Virus record (IMG/VR): IMGVR_UViG_3300049783_001127
DNA length: 64,000 nt
Origin: a virus
Strand: one strand, 5' to 3'
The notes beneath the pieces are model-generated. The model was not told the DNA's origin. It worked only from the letters and a program-made list of their open reading frames with translations, and searched no databases. A program made the translations under genes and the position numbers. Positions 3,001 through 61,320 of the stretch are shown in pieces; positions within the stretch are counted from its first letter, which is position 1; every line of letters begins with the position of its first letter.

Positions 3001-4517
3001 TTACTGCCACTCAAAGAAACATTGGACGTTTCAAATCTAAAGATAGTAATAACAGAGGAAAGGTTATAACTTCCATGGTTGAAACATTTTTTGAAGGAAA
3101 AAGATTATTTGAAGGAGGTAACAATAATGCTACTACTATTAAAGTAATGAACAATGCTTTGGGTATGGCATCACATGCTTTCTTTGCTTTTGATGTTACT
3201 TCAGCTATGAAGAACTTTATTGGTGCACAATTTCAAATTGCTTTAGAAGGCGCAGGAAGCAAGCATTTTAGATATAGTGATTGGCATGCAGGTAGACCAT
3301 GGGCTTCTAAAGCTATGTGGACAATATCAATGGATGTATATAGTACTAAAGCTAAAAGTTTGGATGTGCAAATTGTTGATGTGTTTGATGCTATTCAAGG
3401 TAGATTTGAAGAAAAGTTTGGTGAATCACCAGGTAGATCCATAGGTAGAGATATTGCCAGCTTAACTTGGATGACTTCTCATAGAAAATGGTTAGAAACT
3501 GAAGCATCACTTCAATTGTTTTCTGCAATAATGCAAGCAACTAAAGTAGATCAAGTACAAGAAGATGGTACTATAAAAAAAATAAAGTATATAAATGCTT
3601 GGGAGCTCAATGAAGAGACTAAAAGTATTCAGCTTAAGCCTGGTATAGATAAAGAATGGGATCTTAATGGTAGTAAGTTTGATGAAGTTAAATTTAAAAA
3701 TCATGAAGTATCAAACTTCTTACAAGGGGCTTATGCAAATTTTGATCAACCCATGATTAACAGAGCTTTAGCTTGGAGAATGGTGTCTTCAATGAGAAAG
3801 TTCTTTACTAAGATGTTACTTAACAGATATGGTTTTAGAGGTAGTTGGAGAGATCCAAAAGAAAGATACAATCTTCCTACTAACTCTATGCATATGGGAT
3901 TTTATGTACGTAACATGAAAACTATGATGAAGATCATAAGAAGTAAAGGTCAGTACATGATGATGATGACTAAAGATGAACAGAATGCTTTTAAGAAAGG
4001 TATCCTTGAGCTACTTAAATTATGGTTATTGCAAGCATCTTATATGTGGATATGGGGCTTCAATCCAGATGATGAAGACAGATGGAATAAACTTAAAGGT
4101 AAATCAGGTGCATTACCAACATTTTTTACAGATGAAGAATGGTCAGAAAATTGGAACTTAAGTGGATGGTTATCTAATCATACACTGCTTCTGGCCATGC
4201 ACGTAGAAGCAGAGAACGAACACTTTATTCCATTTCCTGGTTATGGTATGTCTGATATGATTAACATTACAAGTCAAACTTCAATTGCATCAGGTCCATC
4301 TATTGGGGCACTTAGCAAAATACTTACTAACGTAATATTTGCAATAGGTGGTGATGACTCAGTATACTACAAACAAGATACAGGAGCATTAAACGTTCAA
4401 CAAGAAGAAGAGTGGAAAGGGTGGAGAGAGATCTATAAAATGTTTGGTATGAAAGGTAAAATGATTGATCCTACTACTTCTATTAAAAACTTTCAAGGAA
4501 TGAGAAACAAAAACTAG
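12..4517 (+). CDS. Very large hypothetical protein, 5'-truncated at the window edge (1501 aa visible)
   Basis: Single uninterrupted ORF. The reading frame is open upstream of the listed ATG back to the window start. K/E-rich. No catalytic motif recognised. Ends at a hairpin terminator. Confidence 0.75.
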   Translation: MQDNMKSFTEKGNLQKAYSDRIEALDDFEGRVKALYWNAAVLDGSVDRINEYLKDMVDQPDQAKALHQISFFTQSMEQWKTYLLNFLESMEKVDIAENSPIVADINAIKEKIERTETSINKIYRKATTDVLIDYVQGINADIMKASADRIKRWTDSEGKPNSRLSAEYIAKEIKERDEAYISKDDMLDYIMGKKGDIGFMSAWFENYASSQDPSIASFAMYIKKHLSDVSNKVHTKHNEFLTKLEPLIERLGVNPSQIDKFSDNFIFVDKTVRKNPETNELEEYEVYTYLNEFKNYKYDKAILTDRVAKAEALMFEDPSNEEVKKEYIEAVGAKMEHEKYFFHKEYIDDYYYADDVLDTTEIGRKAKSLRAEKLEPISDYAKLHNDNSELYENYEALDIFWREYRQLYSLYDEYGKAKIGEELQIAEVLRDQREAKKHFYEYNEISGKFQITYQHFRTKEGIKLEREGMTKGTDKYNEELDRRTKLWTDRNTRTKIKDSFYEEKAKIVDRIKSIMEGANNEKGNYDVEYETIMETLKGKKDDNGQPVATEMTPELLKSIKDLEQKIQDGKDQLIEASGLTPNDWAILKGFYKRIQDKDKLNQNERALFKELTDKKNKMGLSKTAKAQLLIQFEKLNNLQSKIATDYYITIVNDFYGVIQQDSNTENPIDITNENVNKFNDYEFVQSLFKESPEFKIWFEDNHIEKEVFNWQKKDLEKVYVRTAAWSVTKPKKDKYYETTEILDADGNTISIDGIPSMKYFDRTVKNQYKTGYNASTGTINLKVGEHISREGLSFPDLPYGLKKMEELKDKYPNKYAEQNFAWDHYINRDFEKIKNENGAQYEALELIKDFHLEAQKNLERNGILGLELPRFRKDRYEYLKSGTLKEDGAGKIHEFKQGFLQFWGKKRDDLEEGLNYDAQTAMGEIDLYAGTEGKVPVRGKYNLDLGQVSRDIITREMQYYLSTEQNRKLREIQPIARALQKLAVDNNPADVESLGKLTATQRNIGRFKSKDSNNRGKVITSMVETFFEGKRLFEGGNNNATTIKVMNNALGMASHAFFAFDVTSAMKNFIGAQFQIALEGAGSKHFRYSDWHAGRPWASKAMWTISMDVYSTKAKSLDVQIVDVFDAIQGRFEEKFGESPGRSIGRDIASLTWMTSHRKWLETEASLQLFSAIMQATKVDQVQEDGTIKKIKYINAWELNEETKSIQLKPGIDKEWDLNGSKFDEVKFKNHEVSNFLQGAYANFDQPMINRALAWRMVSSMRKFFTKMLLNRYGFRGSWRDPKERYNLPTNSMHMGFYVRNMKTMMKIIRSKGQYMMMMTKDEQNAFKKGILELLKLWLLQASYMWIWGFNPDDEDRWNKLKGKSGALPTFFTDEEWSENWNLSGWLSNHTLLLAMHVEAENEHFIPFPGYGMSDMINITSQTSIASGPSIGALSKILTNVIFAIGGDDSVYYKQDTGALNVQQEEEWKGWREIYKMFGMKGKMIDPTTSIKNFQGMRNKN

Positions 4518-5772: not shown

Positions 5773-7683
<1,911 letters not shown>

Positions 7684-7687: not shown

Positions 7688-7989
7688 TCTAATAATAGTT
7701 TAGTGTCTCCTGCACAGATATACAACTGTATGAGTTCCTGATCACAATCTAAACAAGTTTGTTTACTTTGCTTCAATGGTGCATCAAGTAAACTGTTATG
7801 TTCAAATCTTACATTTATCCCTGTAACATTTTCTGTCATAAACATAGGCAAGTAAATATTTTTATCACAACAAGTGCAAGCACCTTCTATAACAAACATT
7901 TCTCCCACTTGATCTATAACAGGGCAGAATAAAGGCGCCGGAAATGAGTTACTCATTGGTTTGATTTTTCCTACTGGTCTTCTAATCAT
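7684..7989 (-). CDS. Small zinc-ribbon-like protein (paralog of 7385..7687)
   Basis: CTCCDKNIY...CLDCDQ. 4-nt ATGA overlap with the neighbouring genes. Confidence 0.55.
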
Positions 7990-8201
7990 TACTCTACAAA
8001 TTTAGCATTTACTTTTAACATAAGCATCCTAAGTGCTGTATCTTTACAAGGAATACATGTACCATCAATAGGTCCACCTTTAATTGCAGTCTGACCACAT
8101 ATGGAACATTTATTAAATCTGCCTCCCCACATGAGTTGTTTTTCATGTTCAGTTGCTATTATTGCCATGGCTTTCCTTTGACTATCCTGCATAAAACTCA
8201 T
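7989..8201 (-). CDS. Small zinc-ribbon-like protein
   Basis: CSICGQ...CIPCKD. Ends KFVE* with a stop/start overlap. Confidence 0.55.
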   Translation of the reverse strand: MSFMQDSQRKAMAIIATEHEKQLMWGGRFNKCSICGQTAIKGGPIDGTCIPCKDTALRMLMLKVNAKFVE

Positions 8202-8395
8202 TCTACAAGTTTTGCTTTCTTCTGTGCTTTACAGAATTTTTTAAAGTTTTCATTACAATCATTACAGAATGGTCTTACATCATGACTCCGCACAGGCCAA
8301 TAATTATTATCACATCCTTCACAAGTAGGTAGTTGAGTATTATAAATTTTTAGGTTTGCACTAGCTAACTGTTTCCACAGACCATCCTTACTCAT
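8198..8395 (-). CDS. Small Cys-rich zinc-binding-like protein
   Basis: CEGCDNNYW...CNDCNENFKKFC. Ends KLVE* with an ATGA overlap. Confidence 0.55.
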   Translation of the reverse strand: MSKDGLWKQLASANLKIYNTQLPTCEGCDNNYWPVRSHDVRPFCNDCNENFKKFCKAQKKAKLVE

Positions 8396-12413: not shown

Positions 12414-12842
12414 TTATTTCTCTAGTATCAATTTAGGACCTGTTGCAACCTTAGTTGCATCTTCCATAGTAGCCATGTTCAATGATTTCTCATAATCAAA
12501 TTCTTCATGGTTTACTGCAAATTTTTGAATGAAGCTTTTAACCTCTTCTTTATCAGTAATGTAATACTCAGAATAACTTTCTTGTGTTACTCTTTGTTGT
12601 CTTGTTTCATTAGGTTGATTTTTGATTGTTGAAGGTTTTCCATTATCATCCAATCTTGGAATCATGTGGAAGGTATCCTTCTTAGTCTTTCCAATAATAG
12701 CTAATGTTTTAGCCATTGGATTGTACAAACACTCAATGAAAGGGCATTCATTACTGATTGGCATCATTGTAAATGATTTCATTTTAGCCCACTCTCCGGT
12801 AGCTAACATCATTGACGGCTCAGGCCAGTTTATTTTTGACAT
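12414..12842 (-). CDS. Hypothetical protein
   Basis: 142-aa ORF, no recognisable motif. Confidence 0.45.
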   Translation of the reverse strand: MSKINWPEPSMMLATGEWAKMKSFTMMPISNECPFIECLYNPMAKTLAIIGKTKKDTFHMIPRLDDNGKPSTIKNQPNETRQQRVTQESYSEYYITDKEEVKSFIQKFAVNHEEFDYEKSLNMATMEDATKVATGPKLILEK

Positions 12843-12877
12843 ATTGTTTTGTTGATTTGTTTTAACAAACGTACATA

Positions 12878-13462
12878 TTAATTCTGAAGATCCAAAATCT
12901 TAACCTCACTTTTTAGAGTTTCTAGCTCAAAATTTGGTTTAGAACACAATTCACCTACATCTTGTAGTAGATTTATCATTCCTAATTGATCTTCCTTAGA
13001 AGCTAGCATTTGAGCATAACTTTCATAGTACTTTTCCGGATATAAGTAACTTTCTATAAATGAATAGTTAGCTGAACTTTGTCCATAAAAGTCTTTAATA
13101 TTGTCTTTTAATCTTTGTGATATTTTAGAGTATCTACCATTAACAACATGACCAAAGTCAAGTGCAAAAGGCTCAAAGTCAAATATGTACACTGCTTTGT
13201 TATCTCCAATTTCCTTGAAGTCTTCAAACAACTTGTTATTAATGAGGTGTTCTTGTTCAAAAAACATAAACTCATCATCATTGCGTAGGTGGTATACACA
13301 CACTAACTTCATATCAGCTAGTTTAACCTGCCCCTTCCAGCTGAGATAAGTCTCGACTGGTGTAACGCTGCTTCCTCTCTTATGCCCTAAGGCTGGGTGG
13401 AGAAAGACTCTTGATTTTTGAAAATAACCCTTGTAAACTTCTTTAATCTTTCTTACTGCCAT
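12878..13462 (-). CDS. Hypothetical protein
   Basis: 194-aa ORF, no recognisable motif. Confidence 0.45.
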   Translation of the reverse strand: MAVRKIKEVYKGYFQKSRVFLHPALGHKRGSSVTPVETYLSWKGQVKLADMKLVCVYHLRNDDEFMFFEQEHLINNKLFEDFKEIGDNKAVYIFDFEPFALDFGHVVNGRYSKISQRLKDNIKDFYGQSSANYSFIESYLYPEKYYESYAQMLASKEDQLGMINLLQDVGELCSKPNFELETLKSEVKILDLQN

Positions 13463-13470: not shown

Positions 13471-14511
13471 CTATAAAGCTACTTGATCCATGGCAAACTC
13501 ATATGGTAATGTGTAATCCTTATTTGTGTAGTGATACTTAGCAATTTCTAAAACTTCTTCCAATTGAGATTGCCATTCAAGTAATGATTCTTTCTTGACT
13601 GGGATTGCATATACTTGATTATACTTGTCTATCACAACAAAGTGAAATACAAACTCATAGCCTTCTGTAGACTTATGGTTTGCTCTGACAAGCCTCTCGT
13701 ATATAGCCGCTTGCATCCAATATTTATAATATTCCACACTATCTTTAAACTCTCTGAGAGTCTTCCCAGTAGTTTTCAGGTCATTTACATGTACCTTCTT
13801 GTTAGCATGATCTATTACATAATTATCAACAATTCCTTTTAATCCGAACGGGTAACCCTGTGCTTGGCACGAGAGCATCTGTTCATTATAAACTTCTAGT
13901 AGTTCAAAGCCTGACTGACCTGTTCTTAACAAGTCAATTACTCTTTTGTTTTGTTTCACTGCTGAAACGGCTTCTTTACATCTATCAAGGACTTCCTGAT
14001 CTATAACATCTTTATTACCAGATGCTTTTAGATATTCAAAGTAGTCCAGGCTTTTAGCATCTAACATCTTACCAAGGCGCTTCAAATCCCCGGTTTTTGC
14101 ATCTACTTTTGTGAGATCTTTATCATCTCCCAATTTTTGATGTAAGTTATTATCTACTAACCACTGTAGTATTTGATCTTTGTATGCCCGCAGATCATTA
14201 GCGGGTTTGCCTCCATCTTTCCATTCCTTGTACATAGCATGAACAAGTTTTTTATTACTTACACCTGGTAAAGAACCAGGCATTACAATAAATTGCTTGT
14301 CAAACATACCTTCTTCAAGAATAAGACAATGGATAACCTTTCCTTCTACTAGGTAGGATTCAAGGCTATCCTTTCTCTCTTTCCGTACGTACCAGTTATA
14401 AAATAAGGGTGCCGAATGTAGTAACTTATTCAAACTTGAATAGCTAAACATAAAATAGTTAGAGTAAAATTTCTCTAAAGGATCTTGTGCTGTTAAGATT
14501 GTTCCTATCAT
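13471..14511 (-). CDS. PD-(D/E)XK nuclease, RecB/Cas4/lambda-exonuclease-like
   Basis: IVDNYVID ... VNDLKT (D..D/ExK core) followed by a QAAIY (QxxxY) motif typical of RecB-family nucleases. Confidence 0.5.
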   Translation of the reverse strand: MIGTILTAQDPLEKFYSNYFMFSYSSLNKLLHSAPLFYNWYVRKERKDSLESYLVEGKVIHCLILEEGMFDKQFIVMPGSLPGVSNKKLVHAMYKEWKDGGKPANDLRAYKDQILQWLVDNNLHQKLGDDKDLTKVDAKTGDLKRLGKMLDAKSLDYFEYLKASGNKDVIDQEVLDRCKEAVSAVKQNKRVIDLLRTGQSGFELLEVYNEQMLSCQAQGYPFGLKGIVDNYVIDHANKKVHVNDLKTTGKTLREFKDSVEYYKYWMQAAIYERLVRANHKSTEGYEFVFHFVVIDKYNQVYAIPVKKESLLEWQSQLEEVLEIAKYHYTNKDYTLPYEFAMDQVAL

Positions 14512-14525
14512 TCTTCTTTTCCTTT

Positions 14526-15671
14526 TTAATTGGGTTGTGTAATTTCTAGTCTCTTTAACATGTAATTTTTCACATCTTCAGATACTGTTATTGAGTTGAT
14601 TTTGAAATGTTTAGTGTTGAACTTGTCTTGCATTACATGCTTGACTCCTTCTGCTACTTCTTTCACAATTTCCATTGTAAGCTCTTCTTTGTCCATTAAA
14701 CACTGAATGATATCATCTACTGTTAAGTTGTCCCAATTTGGGAGAGCAAGATACTTAAGTAAACTTTTAAAGTTTACATGTTTATGTTCTTTCAAAGATA
14801 CAATAATTGGTGAAAATTCCTGTAACAAAAGCAATAAAAAGTGTAGTGAGGGCTTCACGTTACAATTACTCATAATTGATAATGCCATCATTTGATCCTC
14901 TCTATTGGTACTTTTGAACATTGTTTTGATTTGCTTATACATCTCTTGATCTATAATAGCAGAATCTTCATTGACACTCCCTATTAAGGACTTCTCAGAG
15001 TATATCTTACTTTTTGGATCAAAGATTTCATTAAGTTTAAGTAGATCTGCTTCTTCTACATACTTTACAGTCACCCAACTGTTAAACTGACTGCCTGGTA
15101 TTTGACCAGTTAAGCTTTTAAAGCCATAGTCTTCAGCTTTATGTAGCGGAGTCCCTATACCACGGTGTTTAGATATATTACCTAAACCATTATAATTGTA
15201 TCCTCCACGTATATTATTTTTATTAATGTATACAACTGAATTTCCTGTTGCTTTTATAGCATTCTTGAGTTCTACTAATTCTGTTGTGAACGGATAGTTT
15301 TGATCTAACCATGTGCAATATACATCAGCTTTTTCAGTCACACTATAAATTCCATATTTAACACATTCTCTAATTGTTTTTACACCAGCTATAATATGTG
15401 TTGCCTTGTCTGAATTATTAGTTATTGAGACATCTTTATCTTTACCCCATGATCTTACTTTGTACCTAGGTACGTCACATCCGGGATAGAAATACAGTTT
15501 GTCTTTAGCAGTTGGTATGTATTCTTTAAGGTCCAACTGTATAACACTAAAGTCCTTAATATCATCAGTCTCAAATACATTAATAGTCTTGTACTTGAAA
15601 GATGTATTGGGATCATTAGGTTTTTCAATCTGGTCAATCCAGATAGCCTTTTTGTAATTAGCTAGATTCAT
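14526..15671 (-). CDS. Hypothetical protein
   Basis: 381-aa ORF. Confidence 0.5.
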   Translation of the reverse strand: MNLANYKKAIWIDQIEKPNDPNTSFKYKTINVFETDDIKDFSVIQLDLKEYIPTAKDKLYFYPGCDVPRYKVRSWGKDKDVSITNNSDKATHIIAGVKTIRECVKYGIYSVTEKADVYCTWLDQNYPFTTELVELKNAIKATGNSVVYINKNNIRGGYNYNGLGNISKHRGIGTPLHKAEDYGFKSLTGQIPGSQFNSWVTVKYVEEADLLKLNEIFDPKSKIYSEKSLIGSVNEDSAIIDQEMYKQIKTMFKSTNREDQMMALSIMSNCNVKPSLHFLLLLLQEFSPIIVSLKEHKHVNFKSLLKYLALPNWDNLTVDDIIQCLMDKEELTMEIVKEVAEGVKHVMQDKFNTKHFKINSITVSEDVKNYMLKRLEITQPN

Positions 15672-16767
15672 CTTTTTCTGCTTTAAATTCTACTTCTTTC
15701 CATTTGTCTAACAGTCTTACCATGATATCTCCATTATCAAGCACTTCAGTGTAATAGAAATCCTCATTAGTACATTTAACAACATGACTAGAATGATCTT
15801 CTTGTAATACAGGTATCAAGTCATCAAGAATCTTTTGACTCATGTAACCATTCTTTTTTGCATCTATAAGAAGATCTTCTTTCCGCATGTTAGAAAACTC
15901 AATCCATCTTGTTCTCTCTAAGAAATGATCTTTACTCTTAGACTTATCAGCATACCTTACATAATTTGAGAAACCTTCTGCAAGTCTCCATATGGTATAT
16001 CTGATTTCACCCCTAAGATCACAATGGAACAATAAACTCAGTCCCAACTTTCTATTAGACGTATCATTACTGTTTAGCATACTATAGATACTATTGTAAG
16101 TATACTCATCAGTAAGCTTAGCTTCAGAGTTAGCCTCATCAGCAATAGTGCTAGCAGTAACTACCTTAAGTTTTCTAGACAGTACATTATAAATTACCTC
16201 AACAGAGGCTGGAGTTAAGAAACATAGTTCTTCTCCTAACAACTGTATGTTTGGGTCTCCTATGTATCTTGCTTCAGGTCCGGATATGTAAGTATTTAAA
16301 CTTTGGTCTACCTCTTTTGGTAACTTACTGTATGTCTTGTTCATTACTAATGGATCATTCTTTACAATACTATATCCGTCACTCCAATGCATCATTGTAT
16401 GTAGAAACTTAGCTTGATCATTCCACTGGATAAATTTATGAAATTCCTCAGTCCCTGCAATCACTGTTGCAATGTTTACATTATTAGTAATGTTTGCACC
16501 TACCTTCTTAAGGTAAGACTTAATTCTTTCTGCTGCCAGTGGATGGCCAGGTAATATAAATACTTTATCACCTTTTTGTATAGAGTGTGCATCATTGCCC
16601 TCTAATATCTTCACTATACCGTTGTACGTACCATCATCCACTTTATAGATAGTACCACAGTTTCTGTCCCCATTAGGAGAGCCATAGACATAATTACAAG
16701 GCTCAGCTTTGAAACCGAGCCTTGTAATTTTAGATTCATCTATAGCATTTAATGCACTATAGCTCAT
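15658..16767 (-). CDS. Hypothetical protein
   Basis: 369-aa ORF. Confidence 0.5.
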   Translation of the reverse strand: MSYSALNAIDESKITRLGFKAEPCNYVYGSPNGDRNCGTIYKVDDGTYNGIVKILEGNDAHSIQKGDKVFILPGHPLAAERIKSYLKKVGANITNNVNIATVIAGTEEFHKFIQWNDQAKFLHTMMHWSDGYSIVKNDPLVMNKTYSKLPKEVDQSLNTYISGPEARYIGDPNIQLLGEELCFLTPASVEVIYNVLSRKLKVVTASTIADEANSEAKLTDEYTYNSIYSMLNSNDTSNRKLGLSLLFHCDLRGEIRYTIWRLAEGFSNYVRYADKSKSKDHFLERTRWIEFSNMRKEDLLIDAKKNGYMSQKILDDLIPVLQEDHSSHVVKCTNEDFYYTEVLDNGDIMVRLLDKWKEVEFKAEKDESS

Positions 16768-17978
16768 TATTTTGTAACCATTTTAACCACTTCAGGGTTC
16801 ATCATCAACTTCTCAAATTTCTTCTTGTCTCCGTTGAGGATTTCTCTTACTGCATAATACTTAAGGTCATTACCAAACATTTCCTTAGTAGTAAGCATAG
16901 TGATTCTGTCAATAACCTTTTGATCAACTGCATTTTCTTTTGCATATACAAGAGCGTAGTTAGCAAAACGTGTACATAATACACTTGCTATATCAGCTCT
17001 ATAGTTGTGATCAATTCCGATTGCCTCTTTAAGAAGTCTTTCAACTTTCTCATCAGACTTTTCAGTAAGCATCACTTCTGGTGATACCAACTTATCCAGT
17101 TTATTGTTAATGAATTGTGTGAACATAAGCGCAAACTCAGGTCCAACAGATCCTTCTCCAATCATTTGGATCATAGGTAGGTTGTTTTCAAACACATCAA
17201 AACTAGAGATAGCATTGAAGAAAGTTGTAATACTTCTTGCATTAGTCTCCTGACCTACTAGCTCAGGGTGTAACATTAAGAAGTTAATACATCTACCGTC
17301 AATATTAGCAGACTCTGCCCATTTACCCCAAGCTTTAACATCAAACTTAAGATTCACCGAGATGAATCTAGTTTTCTGAGCTGAGTCAATAGACTGAACC
17401 ATGTAATCTCCATTGTCAGGATTGGCTGTTAACACAATGTGCCAGTTCTTAGGTAACTTCCAAGAGATGTACTCCTGTCTATCAACTAATTCCATTACAG
17501 CTTGGATGAATCTTACATCCGCTCTGTTCCAGTCATCCAACAATAAGATTCCACCTTCTCCTTTTCCTGCAATCCACTCTGGTGGACAATAGCCCATTTG
17601 AGATCTACCTGTAGGACTATAACCTTTTTCTTTGTATGAGTCAACAATCATCTCATCAGCCCATTTCATGGTCCACTTTCCTTTATCAGGTCCTTCTTCT
17701 GTGTTTTGTTTGACCATTTCAAACTGTCTAACAGGATAACCAACAAGGTCACCAAGCTCTTCAATCTGTGCTAAGTTCAACTTAACATAACCCATGTTGT
17801 TGTTTGCTGCTATTTGCAACATTGTACTTGTTTTACCAATACCAGACTCTCCTACAACTTCTACAGCAACAGAAGGTTTCCCTTCTGCCTGTAGCTTTTT
17901 GTTGGTGCTGATGATGTGGTCTAAGAACCCTGACATTTCAGGGATATTTAACTCTACTTGTTTAATTTTTGTAGCCAT
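16767..17978 (-). CDS. AAA+ ATPase, MoxR/CobS-like (AAA_5 family)
   Basis: Walker A GESGIGKTS, Walker B ILLLDDWNRAD. Directly followed by a VWA protein, the classic CobS/CobT-type pairing. Confidence 0.65.
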   Translation of the reverse strand: MATKIKQVELNIPEMSGFLDHIISTNKKLQAEGKPSVAVEVVGESGIGKTSTMLQIAANNNMGYVKLNLAQIEELGDLVGYPVRQFEMVKQNTEEGPDKGKWTMKWADEMIVDSYKEKGYSPTGRSQMGYCPPEWIAGKGEGGILLLDDWNRADVRFIQAVMELVDRQEYISWKLPKNWHIVLTANPDNGDYMVQSIDSAQKTRFISVNLKFDVKAWGKWAESANIDGRCINFLMLHPELVGQETNARSITTFFNAISSFDVFENNLPMIQMIGEGSVGPEFALMFTQFINNKLDKLVSPEVMLTEKSDEKVERLLKEAIGIDHNYRADIASVLCTRFANYALVYAKENAVDQKVIDRITMLTTKEMFGNDLKYYAVREILNGDKKKFEKLMMNPEVVKMVTK

Positions 17979-19474
17979 TATAATGTTAATTTTTCAATTG
18001 ATTCTTTACTATACATAGTAAGTTCTGCATTTTGTTCACCCACATGTTGACTACCTAAAACACATACATATTTACCATCATTTTTAATACACAAATTTTT
18101 TAGTTCATAATTATCTTGATACAAACATATTGCATTAGTTTTATAAGTAAACTCATTTACTCCAATACTATCTTGTCCATCATTAATAACTAGAATTTCT
18201 GGTTTTTCTTCACGTAAGTCAACATTTAGGTTCATTAGTCTACCTAATTCAATTTCATCATGAATTCTTTTAACCATTCTTCCTACATCAGTTCCACCGC
18301 CGCCAGGCATAGTAGAGAATGTTTGCCAAAACTTAATAGCAGATTCTCTGTCTTTAATATGAGTGAACAGCATTCGGTTCGGATCACCACAGAAATAACT
18401 AAAGAAAACTTCAGCTTCTTCCTTCATTGCATGCTTAAGTCTATCAAGTAAGATAGCCAATACCCATTCTTGTTTTTGTGGACTACTCATACTTCCTGAA
18501 AAATCTAAAATCATAATGATCTTTTGCTTATGTTCCGTTTTGTCAATTGGAACATTTACAGTTAAATTCTTAGTTGCAAGTTTAATTTTAAAATCAGGGA
18601 ATAATCTTTGGTAGAGATCAACATTGAACACTTGAGAATAATCTCTCATCATCTTCTTAGATATCAGTTTAGAGTTTTGTACAACTTTTTCTGTAACTTC
18701 TTTCTCTATTTTAAACTGAGATCCTAAATTTTGAATCAAAGATATTTTGTTCAATATATTCACCTTTTTGAAATCTTGTTTTTTAAAGAAATCCATGTCT
18801 AAGAGTTCATTGTAAATAGGATCCGTAAAGGTTTGATGATCAAAATGCATCTCTTCAAGATCAGCTCTCATGTCTTCAGTAACCCTGTTTTCAGAAGTTT
18901 GACCATCTGATTTACGCTTTTTATTTTTAACAGTAAGCTCATTAAATATGGTCATGGCTTTTTCCAATGGTGTATACCCAGGAACATATTTATCCCAGAG
19001 TGACTCATAAAAAGGAGTTTTGTTATCCCTTTCACTAAGTTGCTCTTCATTCATCTTTGTTTCATCTTGATAGTTAGAATCAATGTAATTCTTATTATCC
19101 ATCATTTTATAAAAAAAGAATCTAGACATTTCCTTTATAAGGTTAATGTTTTCTCTATTTCTCATATTTGATCCCCAAGGGATACGGGATTCTATTTCAT
19201 AAGTCTTAGGTGTGAAGTAAGAATCTGGATTAGTTACAAATAACTCATCATTGTCCTCTTCTAATTCACCAATTCCTCCATAACTACCCCAGTTCCATTT
19301 AGATCCATAGTTACTTCCATAACTACCTCCATAACTACTTCCATAGCCATCTTTTTTGTAAGTGCTTTTATAACCACTTCCTGCAGTGCCATAAGAGCGG
19401 CCATAGCCGGAGTTTCCTCCGGCATTGGCTTTCTTATCTGACTTCTTATTTTTTTTCTTATATCCAATTTTCAT
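17978..19474 (-). CDS. VWA-domain protein (CobT-like) with a G/S/Y-rich low-complexity N-terminus
   Basis: MIDAS motif MILDFSGSMSS (DxSxS). N-terminal 70 aa are KKK plus (GYGS/SYG) repeats. Confidence 0.6.
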   Translation of the reverse strand: MKIGYKKKNKKSDKKANAGGNSGYGRSYGTAGSGYKSTYKKDGYGSSYGGSYGSNYGSKWNWGSYGGIGELEEDNDELFVTNPDSYFTPKTYEIESRIPWGSNMRNRENINLIKEMSRFFFYKMMDNKNYIDSNYQDETKMNEEQLSERDNKTPFYESLWDKYVPGYTPLEKAMTIFNELTVKNKKRKSDGQTSENRVTEDMRADLEEMHFDHQTFTDPIYNELLDMDFFKKQDFKKVNILNKISLIQNLGSQFKIEKEVTEKVVQNSKLISKKMMRDYSQVFNVDLYQRLFPDFKIKLATKNLTVNVPIDKTEHKQKIIMILDFSGSMSSPQKQEWVLAILLDRLKHAMKEEAEVFFSYFCGDPNRMLFTHIKDRESAIKFWQTFSTMPGGGGTDVGRMVKRIHDEIELGRLMNLNVDLREEKPEILVINDGQDSIGVNEFTYKTNAICLYQDNYELKNLCIKNDGKYVCVLGSQHVGEQNAELTMYSKESIEKLTL

Positions 19475-19486
19475 ATCAAGGACTTT

Positions 19487-20671
19487 TTAATCTTCCATGA
19501 ATGCACCTACAGTAACAGAAGTTTTTATAAACTTACGATATCTAGCTACACTTTCTTTAAATCCATCCACTTTCTTAGCAGTTGAGACAGCAAGAGAGTC
19601 ATCAGCCTTAATTGAAGCAAGATTTTTAACTTCTCTACTCATTGTTGCAATCAATGTTTCTACTGGTTCTGCTTGAGATTGATTAGTAATACCGGCATTA
19701 ATTGCATTTTTAATTGCATTTTGTAGAGTGACAAGTTTATTAACTTTTTTAGCAATTTCATCAATAGCTTTAAACTTAACTAATGCATCTTTTAAAACTT
19801 TTTCATGCGCTTTGAAATCAGCAATAAATTCAAGACAGTTTGGGCCACATTCTCTAATTAATTCAGCAGCAACAATAGCAATTCTAGGAGATATTGTGTA
19901 TCCTTTTATACCAAATGCTTCTAGTACATAAGTTAACATAGGGTCTACATTTCCAGCTCCAAACTTAGCTTCTAACAGGTGCTCATAGTTCATTCTTGTG
20001 TGATCTGTCCAACCAACTTCAAGCTCTAATGGGAAACGCTCCATCAATGCTTTCAATGAATTGTTTTTAGAGAACTCTTCTCTTGTTCTGTTAGTACAAC
20101 AGATGATATTCTTAGTCTTAATTTCAAAGACTTGGCTACCATTTCTGAAGACTCCAGATGAAAGGATATCTTTAAGTTGTTCCAAGATGAAATCAGGAGC
20201 ATCAAATAACTCTTCAAAAATCACATATTCTTGGTTCATAAAAGAGTTTTCAATTAAATACTCAATTTTACCTGATGCATTAAACTGATTAAGATCTACA
20301 CCACCAAACAATCTATCAGTTGTCATTCCTGAACCCATTGTGATAATATAAGGTGTAATTCCTCTAGCTTTCAAGTAAGCTTCTGTAAACTCAGACTTAC
20401 CATAACCACCCTTCCCATGAAGGATTACGTTTTTGTTAGTACCAACACTGATATCTAATATATCACGAGTTTTATCCATATATACAAACGAGGAAAGGTT
20501 TGCTTCCATTTCTTCTTGAGTCCCAGCTACATTTAAGTTAGCTTCTTCAACAGCTACAGACGTAGCTTCTTTCTTTTTAGCAACAGGCTTTTTCTTAGTT
20601 GCTGTTTTCTTAGTTGTAGTTTTGTTTGCTACTGTCTTTTTTGCCTCTGGGGCTTTTTTTGCTACGCTCAT
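19487..20671 (-). CDS. Second AAA+ ATPase (MoxR-like) with a lysine-rich histone-H1-like N-terminal tail
   Basis: Walker A HGKGGYGKS. N-terminus AKKAPEAKKTVANKTTTKKTATKKKPVAKKK. Confidence 0.6.
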   Translation of the reverse strand: MSVAKKAPEAKKTVANKTTTKKTATKKKPVAKKKEATSVAVEEANLNVAGTQEEMEANLSSFVYMDKTRDILDISVGTNKNVILHGKGGYGKSEFTEAYLKARGITPYIITMGSGMTTDRLFGGVDLNQFNASGKIEYLIENSFMNQEYVIFEELFDAPDFILEQLKDILSSGVFRNGSQVFEIKTKNIICCTNRTREEFSKNNSLKALMERFPLELEVGWTDHTRMNYEHLLEAKFGAGNVDPMLTYVLEAFGIKGYTISPRIAIVAAELIRECGPNCLEFIADFKAHEKVLKDALVKFKAIDEIAKKVNKLVTLQNAIKNAINAGITNQSQAEPVETLIATMSREVKNLASIKADDSLAVSTAKKVDGFKESVARYRKFIKTSVTVGAFMED

Positions 20672-20672
20672 C

Positions 20673-21995
20673 TTAATTTAACTTTATTGTTGGTTCTGCA
20701 AATCTGTCTGTTTCATGAGATCTACTTGTTAATACCCATAACATTTTACCACGCGCTCTAGGGCTAGGAGCGGGTGCCTCACCATCTGTAAGATATACCA
20801 AACAGGAAAACTCTCTTTGATGTTCATTGTAATAATCAATGACTGGCTGGAAATCTGTTCCTCCTCTGCCGTGTACTTTGATTTTACCATCTTCTGGTTT
20901 TCTGTATGATGCTATATTACTGATAGCAGTATCACACTGTATTACAGTTACTTCAGCACCAGTTTTATACATATGGTGAATTTCATGGAAAATCTCCACT
21001 AATTCATCGTCTGATACTGAACCTGACGTATCTATTCCTACAAGTACATGCTTTCTTGTTTTTACTCTAAGTCCAGGAGCACCTGTAAACCTTTTACTAG
21101 GTTTTCTTCTAGTCTTCTTAGTATAGGTCTTAATTGATCCACCAGTGAATCTTCTTAAATATCCTTTCCAATCAAACTTTGGTGGTTCTTCTGAATTGAG
21201 TGAGTCAAGATATCCTTTCAGCTCTCCAGGAATAGTACCTCTATTCTTAGCAACCTGATCACCAATTTCTTTTAATTGATAATCAATTTGTTTTTGAACC
21301 ATCTTTTTCTCTGCCTCAGATAGTGAATCAAATTCATCCCAAGTAGTGTGTTCCCATGGAGCTTGTCCTGGATGAGGGTTGCTACCATTATTACCAAGAG
21401 CTGAGTTAAGTGCAGAACATGAGCTATTCCCATTCTGGTCTGTACTCTCTAACAGTTTCTTGTAATAGTAATCAGTTCCTTGTTTAGGTTCTAAGTTCAA
21501 CTCTTTAAAGTCTTCTAAGAATAATGCACGCATTGGTATCTTTAGAAGTTCTTCTCTAGCTGCCTCTTTAGTTAATTCTTCAGATTTTAATCTAGCTTTA
21601 ATGCTATCAATAAATATCCCAGTGTCTTTTTCATAGTCCTCTTTGCTTGGATAATTACCACCTGGAAGATATGCTCTATCTATGTACTGGTTTATTTCTA
21701 AATCAGCCGCGATATTGAATAACTTTTTGTTGGTATATCTGTCTCTCAAAGTAAGATGTTGCATTGCAATATGTAATAACTCATGCTTTAAAATTCCCAC
21801 TCTATACTCAGAAGATAAACCTTCCCAGAAGTTTGGATTAATTGCTAGCTGTGTATTAATACCTTGCTTACTTACGCCTGCTGTATCCAGGTCATTTCTC
21901 CAGACCTTATTCATCATAATGAGAAAGAGCCCATAAAAGGGCTCCTTCAACATTAATTCTTTTGTGGCTCTAGAGAGTGATTCATGATTTGTCAT
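20673..21995 (-). CDS. VWA-domain protein fused to an HExxH metallopeptidase-like domain (DUF2201-like architecture)
   Basis: HELLH motif in the N-terminal half. MIDAS VGIDTSGSVS in the C-terminal half. Partner of the preceding ATPase. Confidence 0.6.
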   Translation of the reverse strand: MTNHESLSRATKELMLKEPFYGLFLIMMNKVWRNDLDTAGVSKQGINTQLAINPNFWEGLSSEYRVGILKHELLHIAMQHLTLRDRYTNKKLFNIAADLEINQYIDRAYLPGGNYPSKEDYEKDTGIFIDSIKARLKSEELTKEAAREELLKIPMRALFLEDFKELNLEPKQGTDYYYKKLLESTDQNGNSSCSALNSALGNNGSNPHPGQAPWEHTTWDEFDSLSEAEKKMVQKQIDYQLKEIGDQVAKNRGTIPGELKGYLDSLNSEEPPKFDWKGYLRRFTGGSIKTYTKKTRRKPSKRFTGAPGLRVKTRKHVLVGIDTSGSVSDDELVEIFHEIHHMYKTGAEVTVIQCDTAISNIASYRKPEDGKIKVHGRGGTDFQPVIDYYNEHQREFSCLVYLTDGEAPAPSPRARGKMLWVLTSRSHETDRFAEPTIKLN

Positions 21996-22263
21996 TGATT
22001 ATTTTTTTAATCATTAATGCTACACTTTGCAAAGACTTATACTTTGCAGGATCATGCTCTTCCATTACTTCCAAGGCTCCTTTAGACATTGGCTTTATTT
22101 GTCCATCTTCAGTCCATCTTCCTATTGTAGCACAATAAGCACATACACTAAAGTCACCTTTTTTTGGGGCTTCCCCCTCTTTTTCAGACATTGCAGCGTC
22201 TAAAACATTATGACAAACTTTACATGTAGTTGCATCATGTGTTTGTTGATATTCATATGACAT
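21982..22263 (-). CDS. Small zinc-ribbon protein
   Basis: CKVCHN...CAYCAT motifs. 93 aa. Confidence 0.5.
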   Translation of the reverse strand: MSYEYQQTHDATTCKVCHNVLDAAMSEKEGEAPKKGDFSVCAYCATIGRWTEDGQIKPMSKGALEVMEEHDPAKYKSLQSVALMIKKIINDKS

Positions 22264-22703
22264 TATACTTTTTTTGGAGTGATTCTGATGTCTAGGTATT
22301 CCAAGAAAGAGAAGCCATAGTCTGTCAATAGATTAATAAGTTCATCTTTAAATATGTTTAGAAGAAATTCCATTTCTGCTTCCACTTTTCTACTAGCAGA
22401 TAGTTCATAGATTTTTCTAAATGATAAAGTACTAATTTCAGTATCACCATCCTTAAGTGCTGCAATCAGCCTTTTATGAAGTTCTGGATATTCATTTTCT
22501 AACCGAGATGTATCATTCTTGAATACATCACTGAAAGTCTCTTTAAATAAACATAGAATGTATACTTGAGATGTTTCAAAGTTAGACTGCTCTAAAATAG
22601 TTAGAGCCATTTTCTTTGATGCGTCATCATTTGACAACATCATGTTTTTAAGTTCTGCATAATTGTCCGGAGACACTATGCTTTGTGTTGTTACTGCTTC
22701 CAT
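22263..22703 (-). CDS. Hypothetical protein
   Basis: 146-aa ORF. Start overlaps the upstream stop. Confidence 0.5.
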   Translation of the reverse strand: MEAVTTQSIVSPDNYAELKNMMLSNDDASKKMALTILEQSNFETSQVYILCLFKETFSDVFKNDTSRLENEYPELHKRLIAALKDGDTEISTLSFRKIYELSASRKVEAEMEFLLNIFKDELINLLTDYGFSFLEYLDIRITPKKV

Positions 22704-22735
22704 TGTGGATTTTTTTTAGGGTTCTTATTGTAGAC

Positions 22736-23191
22736 TTAATTGTTTAATTCTGAGTTAAATAACCCAAGCATATGCATAGCATCTGCAATGTTATCATCCT
22801 CTCCTGTGTAACCGTACTTGGTTTTTGCTGCATCTATCATGGCTTGCTTTCCACAATTACCATTGTCAGTTGCAAACTTCTTGATCTCTTTAGCTGAGTA
22901 TGCTCTATAGTTAATACCAACTTCTTCACAAAACTTCTCTATAATAGCAATCATCTTAGATTGGTGCATAACAGAAGCAACGTGTTGACCGGCTGGTCTT
23001 TCATATATAATAACATCCAGCTTTTCAACTTTATGAATTTCTTGTAGTTTGGCCTTGAGTCTTATCAATTTCATTCCCATGGATTCATCCTTAAGGGTCT
23101 TTAGATCCCAAGTGCCATACAAGTTTTGAGTGTCAATGCACCATCCAGTTGTACTGGCTACATCTAAGCTTAATACTTTTAATACTTTCAT
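22736..23191 (-). CDS. RuvC-like Holliday junction resolvase
   Basis: N-terminal SLDVASTTGWCI (catalytic Asp block), IIYERP (Glu), C-terminal DNIADAMHM (Asp) - an RNase H-fold resolvase pattern. Confidence 0.6.
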   Translation of the reverse strand: MKVLKVLSLDVASTTGWCIDTQNLYGTWDLKTLKDESMGMKLIRLKAKLQEIHKVEKLDVIIYERPAGQHVASVMHQSKMIAIIEKFCEEVGINYRAYSAKEIKKFATDNGNCGKQAMIDAAKTKYGYTGEDDNIADAMHMLGLFNSELNN

Positions 23192-23445
23192 TCTACAAAT
23201 TTTAAGTTTCCTTTAACTTTACAATGCATATATTTTTTAAATAAATATGCTGAAATATACCTAACGTCATCTCTCTTAAGTGTAGATGATTTGTAGAATT
23301 GACACAAATCATATAAGACCCATGCAAAAGCTTCATTCTCTTCATGGATTTTTTCAATATTATTTATTAAAAGTATACTTTTAAATTGATCAATAGAAAG
23401 TTCATTGTTTACAGGATCAACACCTGCTATTATAAAATCATTCAT
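23188..23445 (-). CDS. Hypothetical protein
   Basis: 85 aa. Ends KFVE* with an ATGA overlap. Confidence 0.45.
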   Translation of the reverse strand: MNDFIIAGVDPVNNELSIDQFKSILLINNIEKIHEENEAFAWVLYDLCQFYKSSTLKRDDVRYISAYLFKKYMHCKVKGNLKFVE

Positions 23446-23450
23446 GCGCT

Positions 23451-24383
23451 TTAAATTAAAGGTTTAAGACATTGTTTTGTTTTGATGATCCCATGATCTC
23501 TTATGGAGTCAGACAGGTCCTTAGACAGATTTAAATAAATACCTGGGATGTTATACATCTCTTCATATCTTTTCATGGCCGTATGACCAGCTGCATCATT
23601 GTCAAATAGTGTGATAATCTTTTTATATTTAAGTGAACAAGCTGACAACAAAGGTTTAGCTAACATGCTATTCTCACTACTGGGAGCTATAGATTCTACA
23701 TTCATATCTAATCCAATTAGTGATAATAGATCTTTAAGAGATGAAGTAATAATAAGAGTGTCTGTTTTATAAGTGAGTTGTTCTAAACCTTGAACATAAG
23801 CACTCACATTTAAAAACCTAAACTCCTCTTTCATAGGTCTATAGATCTTATATAGTGTACCATCACTTCTAAAGTATCCATATACATACGGACTTTTTAC
23901 AGTAAACTCTAGAACACCCTTATCTGTTTTTTTGGATGATGTGTACGCACTAAGAGGTTTAACATTGTATTTTTCTAAGATCCTGGATCCAATTCCAAAT
24001 TGTGACCAAAATTTAGCATCTAATTCATTCCACTGTCTAGTTTCAAAAGCAGATATTTGATACTTAGCTTCTTCTTGTATTTGTACTGTTTTATCATTAA
24101 CACCTTCTCTGGCAAAATCAATTAATATTAAGTTGATTGCATCTTTCTGAGAAATATTATGCTTATACATTACAAATTCAACCGCACTTCCTTTATATCC
24201 GGATGAAAAGTCATTAAACCTGTATTTACCATTCTTATAAAAAAACTTAAGAGATGGTGTCTTTTCAATAGAGAATTGAGATAACACTGTTAGTGTTTGT
24301 CCGTGTAATTTCTCAGGTAGTTTTCCATAATATTCAAAAATCCAAGTGCTTGGAATCTTATCAAGTGATATAGTTCTTATCAT
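23451..24383 (-). CDS. Toprim-domain DNA primase (DnaG-like, no obvious zinc finger)
   Basis: ITLFDNDAAGHTA matches the Toprim DxD..AG motif. Confidence 0.55.
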   Translation of the reverse strand: MIRTISLDKIPSTWIFEYYGKLPEKLHGQTLTVLSQFSIEKTPSLKFFYKNGKYRFNDFSSGYKGSAVEFVMYKHNISQKDAINLILIDFAREGVNDKTVQIQEEAKYQISAFETRQWNELDAKFWSQFGIGSRILEKYNVKPLSAYTSSKKTDKGVLEFTVKSPYVYGYFRSDGTLYKIYRPMKEEFRFLNVSAYVQGLEQLTYKTDTLIITSSLKDLLSLIGLDMNVESIAPSSENSMLAKPLLSACSLKYKKIITLFDNDAAGHTAMKRYEEMYNIPGIYLNLSKDLSDSIRDHGIIKTKQCLKPLI

Positions 24384-24433
24384 GACACTTAGTATAAAAA
24401 TAAAGAGGATGCCTAAACACCCTCTTTATTTAT

Positions 24434-25129
24434 TTATAATTCAAAGTCAGTTCCTCCGACTCCTGTCATAATATCATCTGGGTTAGCAGCTGGAAATTCT
24501 ATAATTTCCATTGGTGCTTTCTTAGTAATAATATGACTTGCTTTATCAAAAGTTAAAACACGGCTTACATTTTCTTCAACTTCTTCATTCTCAAATGGAA
24601 CCCCATCTTTAAACTTAGGAAAGAACAAATCAAAGTTGGTATAACCTTGTTTGTTTTCATATTCTTTTCCACATAGACAAACCTTTAAAAATTTGTCTGC
24701 AAATGGTGCAGCTTCACTTAAAGCTTTAACAAGAGACTCTACAGTTTCATGTTTACCATCTTCTTTTTCTAACCAATCAGTGCAACCTACTGCATCACAA
24801 AATTTACCTAGAAACTTTACAATTTCTATGTCTCTATTGATTTTGATTTCACCAAGATCTTTATCTTGATAAGCCCATTGGCTTGCTCTAACACGACCAA
24901 CTTGACCTTTGTGGCGTCCAAGTGTTGTATTAGCCTTATCAATGAAGAATCCTTCAAACGTTTCACCCATATCTACACCTTCACAATCAAGCATAATATT
25001 ATATGCTCCTTCCGCAAAGCGGAACTCTTCTAAGTAAATTGCATTTACTTTGATAGTTGTATTACCTGGTTGCAAAGTCTTTGATACTTTACCTCCCCCA
25101 CCAGTTGGGATGTCTTTTGTACTAATCAT
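24434..25129 (-). CDS. Hypothetical protein (position suggests a ssDNA-binding or replication accessory role)
   Basis: 231 aa with an acidic C-terminus. No motif secure enough for a call. Confidence 0.45.
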   Translation of the reverse strand: MISTKDIPTGGGGKVSKTLQPGNTTIKVNAIYLEEFRFAEGAYNIMLDCEGVDMGETFEGFFIDKANTTLGRHKGQVGRVRASQWAYQDKDLGEIKINRDIEIVKFLGKFCDAVGCTDWLEKEDGKHETVESLVKALSEAAPFADKFLKVCLCGKEYENKQGYTNFDLFFPKFKDGVPFENEEVEENVSRVLTFDKASHIITKKAPMEIIEFPAANPDDIMTGVGGTDFEL

Positions 25130-59024: not shown

Positions 59025-59717
59025 ATGATGAAACTAAAAATTATGAGTAAAGCACTTTTAGTAATGTCTCTAGCAATGACATCATGCCAACAACAAAATA
59101 TTGAATCGCCTAACAAGAAAATTGTTATGTTAGGTGATTCAGGCATAAAACAAATAGACGGTCAGCTCTCAGGAGTTAATCAATCTTCTTGGAACGCTTT
59201 GATGGGTCATAACAATATGATCAACTTAGGTTTTAATGGATACGCAACAGCAAATATCATAAGCTATGGCAATCCTGCACCTTTGGCCTTGGCTATTGCA
59301 GAAGCCCCTGATCTATTATACTTAAGTATAGGTGGAAATGATGGTGCTGCAGGACAAGGTAGTGGTGTATCTTTAGCTACAACTATGGCTAATCTTGAAA
59401 ATATATGTAATCAAATAAAAGCTGCAAACATTCCATTTGTAATTGTTTCTGTTCTCCCTTTCACTAAGATAAGAAATGAAACCGCTGGTGGGGGTGTAGG
59501 GATATTCAATGACAACTTTCAAAACATGAATGATGCTATTATCCAGTTTTGCGCAGACAATGAATATGAATGCATGGATATACGCCCTTATGTTTGTTAT
59601 AGAGAAAATGGCTTATGGCACTTAAGAGACAGTCTCACTTTTGACGGAGTCCACTTAACTTTTGAAGGATATGAACAGTGGGCAATACCTCTAAGTTACA
59701 GTATTAACCAACATTAA
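59025..59717 (+). CDS. SGNH/GDSL-family hydrolase lipoprotein
   Basis: Signal plus lipobox (LAMTSC). Block I GDSGI, block III GGNDG, block V DGVHLT. Confidence 0.7.
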   Translation: MMKLKIMSKALLVMSLAMTSCQQQNIESPNKKIVMLGDSGIKQIDGQLSGVNQSSWNALMGHNNMINLGFNGYATANIISYGNPAPLALAIAEAPDLLYLSIGGNDGAAGQGSGVSLATTMANLENICNQIKAANIPFVIVSVLPFTKIRNETAGGGVGIFNDNFQNMNDAIIQFCADNEYECMDIRPYVCYRENGLWHLRDSLTFDGVHLTFEGYEQWAIPLSYSINQH

Positions 59718-60747: not shown

Positions 60748-60820
60748 GGAGGTATAGCAAAGATGGACTATGCGGGGGTTTGAAGAACCTTAGATCCAAG
60801 ATCGTTACTTGGTGCCTCCA
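60748..60820 (+). tRNA. tRNA-like element / probable pseudo-tRNA (73 nt, aberrant anticodon arm)
   Basis: Acceptor GGAGGTA/TGCCTCC and T-arm CCAAG-ATCGTTA-CTTGG are present, but the anticodon stem is poor. Confidence 0.3.
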
Positions 60821-60825
60821 CACAT

Positions 60826-60896
60826 GGGATGGATTATGGTGATAGCCGGGACTGTAAATCCCTAGCAGGTTGGTTCGAGTCCAGCGCATCCCACCA
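60826..60896 (+). tRNA. tRNA (anticodon read as GTA, Tyr?; atypical short form)
   Basis: T-arm GTTGG-TTCGAGT-CCAGC. Acceptor GGGATGG/GCATCCC, discriminator A plus an encoded CCA. D-arm irregular. Confidence 0.4.
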
Positions 60897-60901
60897 ATTA
60901 T

Positions 60902-60985
60902 AGAGGGCATCCGGCTGGATGAGGAGCTGATCTTGAAAATCAGTAGCACTGAAAGGTGTTTAGAGTTCGAGTCTCTAGCCCTCTA
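60902..60985 (+). tRNA. tRNA-Ser(TGA), class II
   Basis: Acceptor AGAGGGC/GCCCTCT, anticodon stem CTGAT/ATCAG with loop CTTGAAA, long variable arm, T-arm TAGAG-TTCGAGT-CTCTA. Confidence 0.65.
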
Positions 60986-60990
60986 CATAC

Positions 60991-61059: not shown

Positions 61060-61064
61060 CAAAT

Positions 61065-61135: not shown

Positions 61136-61227
61136 CAAACAGAGAGAGAACCTACCTGGGTAGGCTGCCCCTGCTAAGGGCATGGGTGTGAAAGCACTGG
61201 GGATCAAGGCCTCCTCTCTCTACAAAT

Positions 61228-61309: not shown

Positions 61310-61320
61310 CAATAACAAAT

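Follow-up and report, generated by a model that had tools for sequence, protein, structure and literature searches.

The subject of this study is a block of four genes at positions 16767-21995 of a 64,000-nucleotide (nt) stretch of viral DNA (IMG/VR record IMGVR_UViG_3300049783_001127), hereafter the window, which is an uncultured phage contig. The block is filled exactly by four tightly packed minus-strand open reading frames (ORFs), transcribed in the order PepVWA, ATP2, VWA1 and ATP1 (Table 1). Comparison with related phages revealed that PepVWA and ATP1 form one cognate pair (outer) and ATP2 and VWA1 another (inner), and the window therefore reads A[bB]a. The block probably encodes two independent MoxR-VWA protein remodellers, one nested in the other, which would act in the replication phase, with the outer one coupled to proteolysis. 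A preliminary description, made from the sequence alone, had listed the four genes and their motifs, and all of these are present as described. Its domain calls (MoxR-like AAA+ ATPase, VWA, and a fusion of an HExxH peptidase with VWA) also hold, that of ATP1 only via a family profile (Midasin, 5e-19). Its grouping of the genes as consecutive pairs, ATP1 with VWA1 and ATP2 with PepVWA, was wrong, as the gene order in relatives demonstrates.

Pairing and nesting of the two modules

Two sets of relatives were used, the first fetched via ATP1 and the second by an alignment-based scan for VWA1 in IMG/VR, where the stored flanks of a locus reach at most 10 kb. PepVWA was directly followed by ATP1 in all 80 syntenic IMG/VR loci, with ATP2 and VWA1 absent from that site. 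The two genes likewise abutted without inner genes between them in the loci L161 to L164, and they lie ~30 bp apart in L007, the closest un-nested relative. In about 60 of 62 loci, VWA1 was immediately preceded by ATP2, the two genes forming a cassette on their own that usually lies 7-9 kb upstream of DnaB, or up- or downstream of a DNA polymerase gene. In distant phages, the ATPase adjoining a PepVWA homologue matched ATP1 by tblastn (PBS1, Moorella MTATph1, Alteromonas AD45-P1 and S-TIM5) or was an ATPase by annotation only (Litunavirus Ab09 and Vibrio K479). Both PepVWA-ATP1 and ATP2-VWA1 have the arrangement of a MoxR-VWA gene pair, that is, an ATPase gene adjoining a VWA gene, and these adjacencies, together with the neighbours in distant phages, establish that the cognate pairs are nested and not consecutive.

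The preliminary description had also proposed a duplicated, diverged pair. A tandem duplication followed by divergence, giving ATP1 with VWA1 and then ATP2 with PepVWA, would suit the alternating order of VWA and ATPase genes and the membership of all four proteins in two superfamilies, and is nevertheless highly improbable. Relatives pair PepVWA with ATP1 and ATP2 with VWA1, in the distant phages examined it is ATP1 homologues, and not ATP2 homologues, that adjoin PepVWA, the short PepVWA-ATP1 spacing in L007 points the same way, and the candidate paralogues are alike only in the P-loop and where the VWA domain starts. ATP1 and ATP2 have the P-loop alone in common (BLASTP E 0.85; hhalign probability 1.8%). 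VWA1 and PepVWA gave a BLASTP E of 2.0 and an hhalign probability of 47% over 54 columns, an overlap that comprises the VWA domain start only, including the DxSxS motif. Judged by these alignments, the two modules are evolutionarily independent and not the products of a diverged duplication.

The nested order recurred in L088, L089 and L090/L091, where VWA1 is 77%, 65% and 58% identical, respectively (tblastn), and four loci with 70-75% PepVWA identity (L007, L162, L163 and L164) are un-nested. By percent identity, the inner genes of any nested locus are closest to those of the other nested loci. Combined with nesting in separated PepVWA lineages, this suggests that recombination between conserved flanking genes spread the cassette along with its position. 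Repeated insertion or loss is an alternative history.

Both pairs were also detected at separate sites of one contig, in 3300012956_000016, in 3300034021_000736 and in the abundant 134-kb L161 type. In 3300042894_002234, the cassette and PepVWA occupy separate sites, the stored locus ending inside PepVWA and so showing no ATP1. The two modules occur together in at least eight related phage contigs. Co-occurrence at separate sites of the same genome indicates that carriage of two MoxR-VWA modules per phage is common in this group, and that the interleaving alone is particular to the nested loci. The synteny check suggested beforehand thus confirmed that both modules recur in related phages, and overturned the proposed pairing and the view that the presence of two modules is unusual.

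Domains and conserved residues of the four proteins

PepVWA consists of an N-terminal zincin-like metallopeptidase domain fused to a C-terminal VWA domain, with the motifs HELLH at residues 71-75 and IDTSGSVS at residues 321-328. It matched Pfam DUF2201_N (2e-21, 77.2 bits, cut-off 23.2) and DUF2201 (4e-16, 59.8 bits, cut-off 26.4), and the presence of both domains and of a conserved HExxH places it among the predicted metal-dependent peptidase-VWA proteins of COG3864. Residues H71, E72 and H75 of the peptidase domain, and also H80 and D98, are invariant, and the metal-ion-dependent adhesion site (MIDAS; DxSxS...T...D) residues D322, S324, S326, T380 and D404 are invariant in 23 sequences. The label 'HNH endonuclease' is widespread in PHROGs and RefSeq, for example on NC_043027 gp214 and NC_021532 gp051. 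This label, carried by phrog_1314 and the RefSeq homologues, was rejected for PepVWA because Pfam and NCBIfam scans returned no HNH family. On DUF2201 peptidase-VWA proteins it appears to be a propagated misannotation.

The Walker A motif of ATP1 is GESGIGKTS (residues 43-51). As a single sequence ATP1 scored 17.6 bits against Pfam AAA_5 (E 0.0039), which is below the cut-off of 22. Its family profile, built from 25 sequences, matched Midasin AAA domains in the PDB at 4.8e-19, and ATP1 matched phrog_1297 'ATPase' at 1.6e-34. The Walker A, sensor 1 and arginine-finger positions of the family are invariant, the invariant residues being G43, G46 and K49 of Walker A, R152, N186, P187 and R204. Walker B reads LDDWNRA in the clade of the window; the homologues in the PBS1, Alteromonas and Moorella phages have LDELNR or LEELNR instead. 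In L090 (11500-13757) and L162 (4720-6987), an insert of ~1 kb with a GIY-YIG homing endonuclease splits the ATP1 gene shortly after Walker B (residue ~155-165). The L090 insert contains a group I intron RNA at 12698-12960 (Rfam RF00028, 69.9 bits, E 2e-17), and the AAA_24 and DNA polymerase genes of L090 are similarly split.

ATP2 carries the Walker A motif GKGGYGKS at residues 86-93 and matched Pfam bpMoxR (3.3e-13, 49.6 bits, cut-off 27) and AAA_5 (5.6e-10, 39.8 bits, cut-off 22), with RavA as the top PDB match (2.3e-5). Residues conserved in at least 93% of 61 relatives include G86, G88, G89, G91, K92 and S93 of Walker A, F152, E153 and E154 of Walker B, T193, N194, E211, R212, F213, S261, P262 and R263; the Walker B position is EE and not DE. 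With a model match above cut-off and with Walker A and B, sensor 1 and the arginine finger conserved, ATP2 qualifies as a MoxR/AAA_5 ATPase. Its C-terminal region is helical. The preliminary description had reported a histone-H1-like KAKK tail on this protein; a lysine-rich stretch does exist, located at the N-terminus (residues 1 to ~45), but it is limited to the closest relatives (the nested clade), absent or acidic in most other members and longer in L088, and a conserved histone-H1-like tail is therefore not supported. The ATP2 homologues in L113, L128, L131 and L151 appear to have an extra N-terminal ~107 amino acids (aa) (MSKYRFKTEEEFK...), absent from the window protein, which may represent either an added domain or an ORF called too long.

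VWA1 comprises a disordered N-terminus (~1-79), a helical domain (~90-290), a VWA domain (~310-475) and a short beta-stranded C-terminal end. The motif DFSGSMSS lies at residues 324-331, the VWA fold is present, and the MIDAS residues D324, S326, S328, T395 and D432 are invariant in 18 sequences. In the structure model, the predicted local distance difference test (pLDDT) score is below 50 over residues 1-74, in agreement with disorder. The Tyr/Gly/Ser-rich N-terminus noticed earlier is real: residues 1-79 contain 49% Y+G+S, and the same richness was found in 59 of 59 relatives, with a median of 44% vs 15% in the remainder of the protein. This region typically closes with a tryptophan-containing aromatic stretch and an acidic patch; its composition is conserved among relatives, whereas its sequence and length vary. 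VWA1 had no PHROG match and no Pfam family above cut-off, and its profile found nothing meaningful in the PDB. When the model was searched against BFVD, only the VWA domain found partners (template modelling (TM) score at most 0.27), including ORF892 of Acidianus two-tailed virus (ATV) and CobT-like proteins. The possibility that the helical mid-domain is a degenerate DUF2201_N peptidase domain was rejected, as hhalign aligned the VWA start only.

The profile searches recommended in the preliminary description gave matches above cut-off for DUF2201 and for AAA_5 in ATP2, and not for AAA_5 in ATP1 or for CobS/CobT. The assignment to CobS/CobT-like metal chelatases, or to metal-insertion auxiliary metabolic genes in general, has next to no probability. 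It could draw on partial-region matches to phrog_249 'porphyrin biosynthesis' (1.9e-5 and 4.4e-6), a weak TIGR02442 cobaltochelatase match of 16.7 bits, CobS at E 0.01 in the PDB search with the ATP1 profile, and CobT-like phage proteins among the BFVD matches. These scores are far below the family cut-offs (779 bits for TIGR02442) and place none of the proteins in the chelatase family; the matches reflect common AAA_5/VWA superfamily membership. The genes are surrounded by replication genes, the scanned neighbours include no further gene for cobalamin or porphyrin, and the peptidase domain of PepVWA is absent from chelatase subunits.

Setting among replication genes and proposed function

The upstream neighbours of the block encode a DnaB-like helicase, an AAA_24 protein, a DnaG-like primase and a RuvC-like resolvase, and the downstream neighbours a PD-(D/E)XK exonuclease and a family B DNA polymerase. 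The gene junctions within the block are a 1-nt gap, a 12-nt spacer and a TAATG overlap. No minus-strand terminator-like site was found within the block, promoter-like sites were not enriched there, and no Rfam family was detected in 14000-25000. Given these tight junctions, with neither an internal terminator-like site nor an excess of promoters, the four genes and their neighbours are apparently co-transcribed as one operon.

The outer pair lies near replication or nucleotide-metabolism genes in six lineages, namely that of the window and five others: it is beside the DNA polymerase in Litunavirus Ab09, a Dda-like helicase and DNA polymerase in Vibrio K479, a DNA helicase in Moorella MTATph1, topoisomerase II and a DNA-binding protein in PBS1, and thymidylate synthase in S-TIM5. 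The corresponding genes of phage N4, gp24 (AAA ATPase) and gp25 (vWFA), are core, middle-transcribed genes without known function (PMC4193335, PMC2784036). Because of this neighbourhood in six lineages and the middle-gene expression in N4, we moderately favour action during replication or host takeover, rather than in the late maturation of virions.

A role in virion assembly or maturation, in which the MoxR-VWA pairs would chaperone structural proteins and the fused metallopeptidase would process them, is unlikely. Iyer et al. (2021) noted a MoxR-metallopeptidase-vWA pair in jumbo phages and proposed virion assembly with proteolytic processing, by analogy with ATV (PMC7824862, section 3.4.5). 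That proposal has no obvious fit to the replication context here. The match of VWA1 to ATV ORF892 in BFVD (E 3e-6) would agree with it, although the match is limited to the VWA domain (TM 0.23). Roseophage RPP1 has four virion-protein genes near its gp24/gp25 homologues (PMC4193335), Hsp20 flanks the S-TIM5 pair, which has a structural/packaging gene in its vicinity, and a GroEL-like chaperonin is encoded in the window. On the other side, the genes lie between primase/RuvC and exonuclease/DNA polymerase in the window and in ~90 relatives, the setting is similarly non-structural in Litunavirus Ab09, Vibrio K479, Moorella MTATph1 and PBS1, and N4 gp24/gp25 are middle and not late genes (PMC4193335).

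For two independent remodellers acting in the replication phase, the following mechanism is proposed. By analogy with solved MoxR-VWA systems, each ATPase would form a hexameric ring working via its own VWA adaptor. The MIDAS of the VWA domain would capture an acidic residue of the target protein, and ATP hydrolysis would transmit force through the VWA protein, thereby remodelling the adaptor-client complex. In the outer module, remodelling would be coupled to ATP-regulated cleavage of the captured protein, as suggested by the fusion of VWA to a zincin domain that keeps its catalytic residues unchanged even among very distant phages. The inner module is a separate, phage-restricted family that moves as two genes together, and in this sub-lineage it occupies the precise point where the outer genes meet. 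The aromatic-rich tail and private helical domain of VWA1 presumably recognise its own target or contact the ATPase pore; more speculatively, the tail may serve ATP2-pore engagement, multivalent client binding or condensate formation. The remodelling machine envisaged in general terms in the preliminary description agrees with these family assignments and with published MoxR-VWA biology.

A stronger version, in which the two modules are one coupled two-ring AAA+ relay with a built-in protease, selected for co-expression and co-assembly, is improbable. It is motivated by the presence of the cassette in the exact outer junction in two separated lineages and by co-occurrence across the group. In such a relay, ATP2 and the FUS-like tail of VWA1 might concentrate clients or pass them on to PepVWA/ATP1 for cleavage, perhaps within a condensate where replication takes place. 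If true, this arrangement would have no described counterpart in phages.

Several points weigh against two nested remodellers with a proteolytic outer member. We infer the targets, timing, and ATPase and peptidase activity of both modules, and co-transcription is read from gene packing only. No solved structure is significantly homologous to the peptidase domain (best E 0.014-0.02), and the putative status of PepVWA as an active protease derives from motif invariance. The Asp that replaces the Walker B Glu in the ATP1 clade might weaken hydrolysis, and the single sequences of ATP1 and VWA1 score below Pfam cut-offs. In the neighbour-joining tree of PepVWA, the nested loci split over two separated lineages with closer relatives un-nested, and adjacency of the inner and outer genes need not imply functional coupling.

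Two genes that follow ATP1, g369 and g381 (Table 1), are distant paralogues (BLASTP E 3e-7) with no match in Pfam, PHROG, NCBIfam or PADLOC, and a g381-like gene follows ATP1 in most syntenic loci. Both may be accessory components of the outer module, the g381-like protein perhaps a third component. Elsewhere in the window, the GroEL-like chaperonin, with which the modules may cooperate according to the preliminary description, was accompanied by no GroES-like gene in the scans that were run. The array of transfer RNA (tRNA) genes contains a tRNA-Ile with anticodon TAT, and guanine-cytosine (GC) content there is up to ~0.41-0.42. The sign of the GC skew flips twice, near 4-5 kb and near 54-57 kb, marking blocks of divergent transcription.

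Table 1. Features of the window (positions in nt, protein lengths in aa)
Feature	Position	Strand	Description
PepVWA	20673-21995	-	440 aa; predicted adaptor/protease of the outer module; transcribed first
ATP2	19487-20671	-	394 aa; AAA+ ATPase of the inner module, MoxR-type
VWA1	17978-19474	-	498 aa; predicted adaptor of the inner module
ATP1	16767-17978	-	403 aa; divergent AAA_5/midasin-like ATPase, cognate partner of PepVWA (outer module)
g369	15658-16767	-	369 aa; immediately downstream of ATP1
g381	14526-15671	-	381 aa; next after g369
15-nt tandem repeat	20590-20623	-	2.3 copies, in-frame; Tandem Repeats Finder score 54; part of the lysine-rich extension of ATP2
12-nt tandem repeat	19304-19345	-	3.5 copies, in-frame; Tandem Repeats Finder score 63; low-complexity N-terminus of VWA1
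GroEL-like chaperonin	5773-7401	-	Cpn60_TCP1, 1.2e-75; ~9 kb downstream of the four genes
ORF without Pfam match	12-4517	+	1501 aa; opposite strand to the four genes
SPFH/Band 7 domain protein	33224-34723	-	1.4e-16
GDSL-like lipase/acylhydrolase	59025-59717	+	7.6e-14
tRNA array	60748-63341	+	20 tRNA genes for 17 amino acids; Leu, Arg and Ile twice each

Distribution of the inner family and comparison with known systems

A nucleotide search of the 5.2-kb region against GenBank phages returned nothing, and ATP2 is 100% identical to a protein of a 65-kb Joint Genome Institute (JGI) contig. Among clusters at 90% identity, ATP2 has at least 866 relatives and VWA1 at least 602. An exhaustive search of 1.84 billion representatives with the VWA1 profile gave 498 hits; the best 150 are 72-671 aa long, the near-full-length ones ~360-580 aa, and a more distant tier consists of plain VWA_2 or CoxE-like VWA proteins. 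Neither ATP2 nor VWA1 matched any of 50,697 deposited phage genomes by tblastn, and a pattern scan for VWA1 in 185,579 bacterial and archaeal species genomes gave no match, a result that depends on the pattern and that distant relatives could escape. From these searches the inner pair belongs to an undescribed family, whose members were encountered solely in metagenomic phages. By its homologues the outer pair is an already recognised phage module, of the N4 gp25/gp24 and jumbo-phage type.

MoxR-VWA pairs are among the most widespread phage genes without known function, and the peptidase-VWA/ATPase pair, part of the gene core in N4-like phages, is found again in jumbo phages, cyanophages and the abundant uncultured group studied here. 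The correct pairing will guide biochemistry, as co-expressed wrong partners would fail. A second, phage-only MoxR-VWA family has been delimited, and its adaptor with a conserved prion-like tail is a concrete experimental target.

The Pfam family that best matches ATP2, bpMoxR, derives from MoxR-vWA-beta-propeller ternary conflict systems of Bacteroidetes and others, described in a study that also covers the general MoxR-vWA logic (PMC7159879). Thus, the ATP2-VWA1 pair in particular might be a conflict module for counter-defence or inter-phage competition, of bacterial MoxR-vWA origin, that remodels or sequesters a host immune protein; we hold this to be distinctly unlikely. The cassette occurs in at least four genomic contexts, close relatives carry it at this site only patchily, and both the sequence and the length of the VWA1 N-terminus are hypervariable. 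In L092, a ClpS-like adaptor gene (7980-8219) lies ~0.7 kb upstream of a free-standing cassette, which would favour a conflict role and is maybe coincidence; ClpS/L12 domain insertions have been reported in the vWA components of bpMoxR systems (PMC7159879). Against such a role, a PADLOC scan of the four proteins assigned none to a defence system, giving only a marginal BrxF match to ATP1 (E 0.005) and none to the other proteins, no effector domain is recognisable, and the pattern scan of prokaryotic species genomes yielded no relative. Both protein cores are strongly conserved, and the cassette is usually near replication genes. VWA1 resembles the vWA components of ~62% of the bpMoxR systems in the long alpha-helical region that precedes its VWA domain. 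The bpMoxR systems differ in that VWA1 ends ~25 residues past the VWA domain without a beta-propeller, none being present among the 150 listed hits either, that no conserved third gene encoding tetratricopeptide repeats (TPR) or a beta-propeller accompanies ATP2-VWA1, whose neighbours vary, and that the ATP2 P-loop is canonical and not GxxxTAKS. Membership in the ternary system was rejected, as the propeller and the third component are both missing.

The bacterial systems NorQ-NorD, CbbQ-CbbO and RavA-ViaA have neither a peptidase domain nor a Tyr/Gly/Ser-rich tail, and they act on enzymes of respiration or carbon fixation, which the phage context here lacks; sequence likeness to the phage pairs is limited to superfamily cores. 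For NorQ-NorD, cryo-electron microscopy showed a VWA finger inserted into the MoxR pore and a linker of the VWA protein being remodelled by the ATPase (PMC13036017). ATV is alike in encoding a MoxR-VWA pair, p618 (MoxR) and p892 (VWA), the latter being the ORF892 matched by the VWA domain of VWA1; it differs as an archaeal virus whose extracellular tail development has no counterpart in the gene context here.

Among jumbo phages, gp213-gp214 of PBS1/AR9 and the group 2.2 phages are alike in having a MoxR-like ATPase that adjoins a zincin-like peptidase-VWA protein. PBS1 gp214 matches PepVWA (29%, 6e-24), and the adjoining gp213 matches ATP1 (22.7%, 1e-9); the ATPase comes first in PBS1, which is a 250-kb myovirus. 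In the N4-like phages (Schitoviridae), identity is just ~25%, and the likeness of ATP1 to gp24 is drawn from gene neighbourhood. The order in Litunavirus Ab09 is ATPase, small ORF and VWA protein, whereas the VWA gene precedes the ATPase in the window, and the N4-like phages examined have no second MoxR-VWA pair between the two genes. They share with the window a gp25-type protein, an ATPase gene nearby and adjoining replication genes, and 97% of PepVWA is covered by its alignment with 'N4 gp25-like' proteins from Pseudomonas N4-like phages (24.5% identity, E 2e-13). The repeated replication-gene setting of the outer pair argues against virion assembly, the sole published proposal, and N4 gp24/gp25 offer a tractable model for this module.

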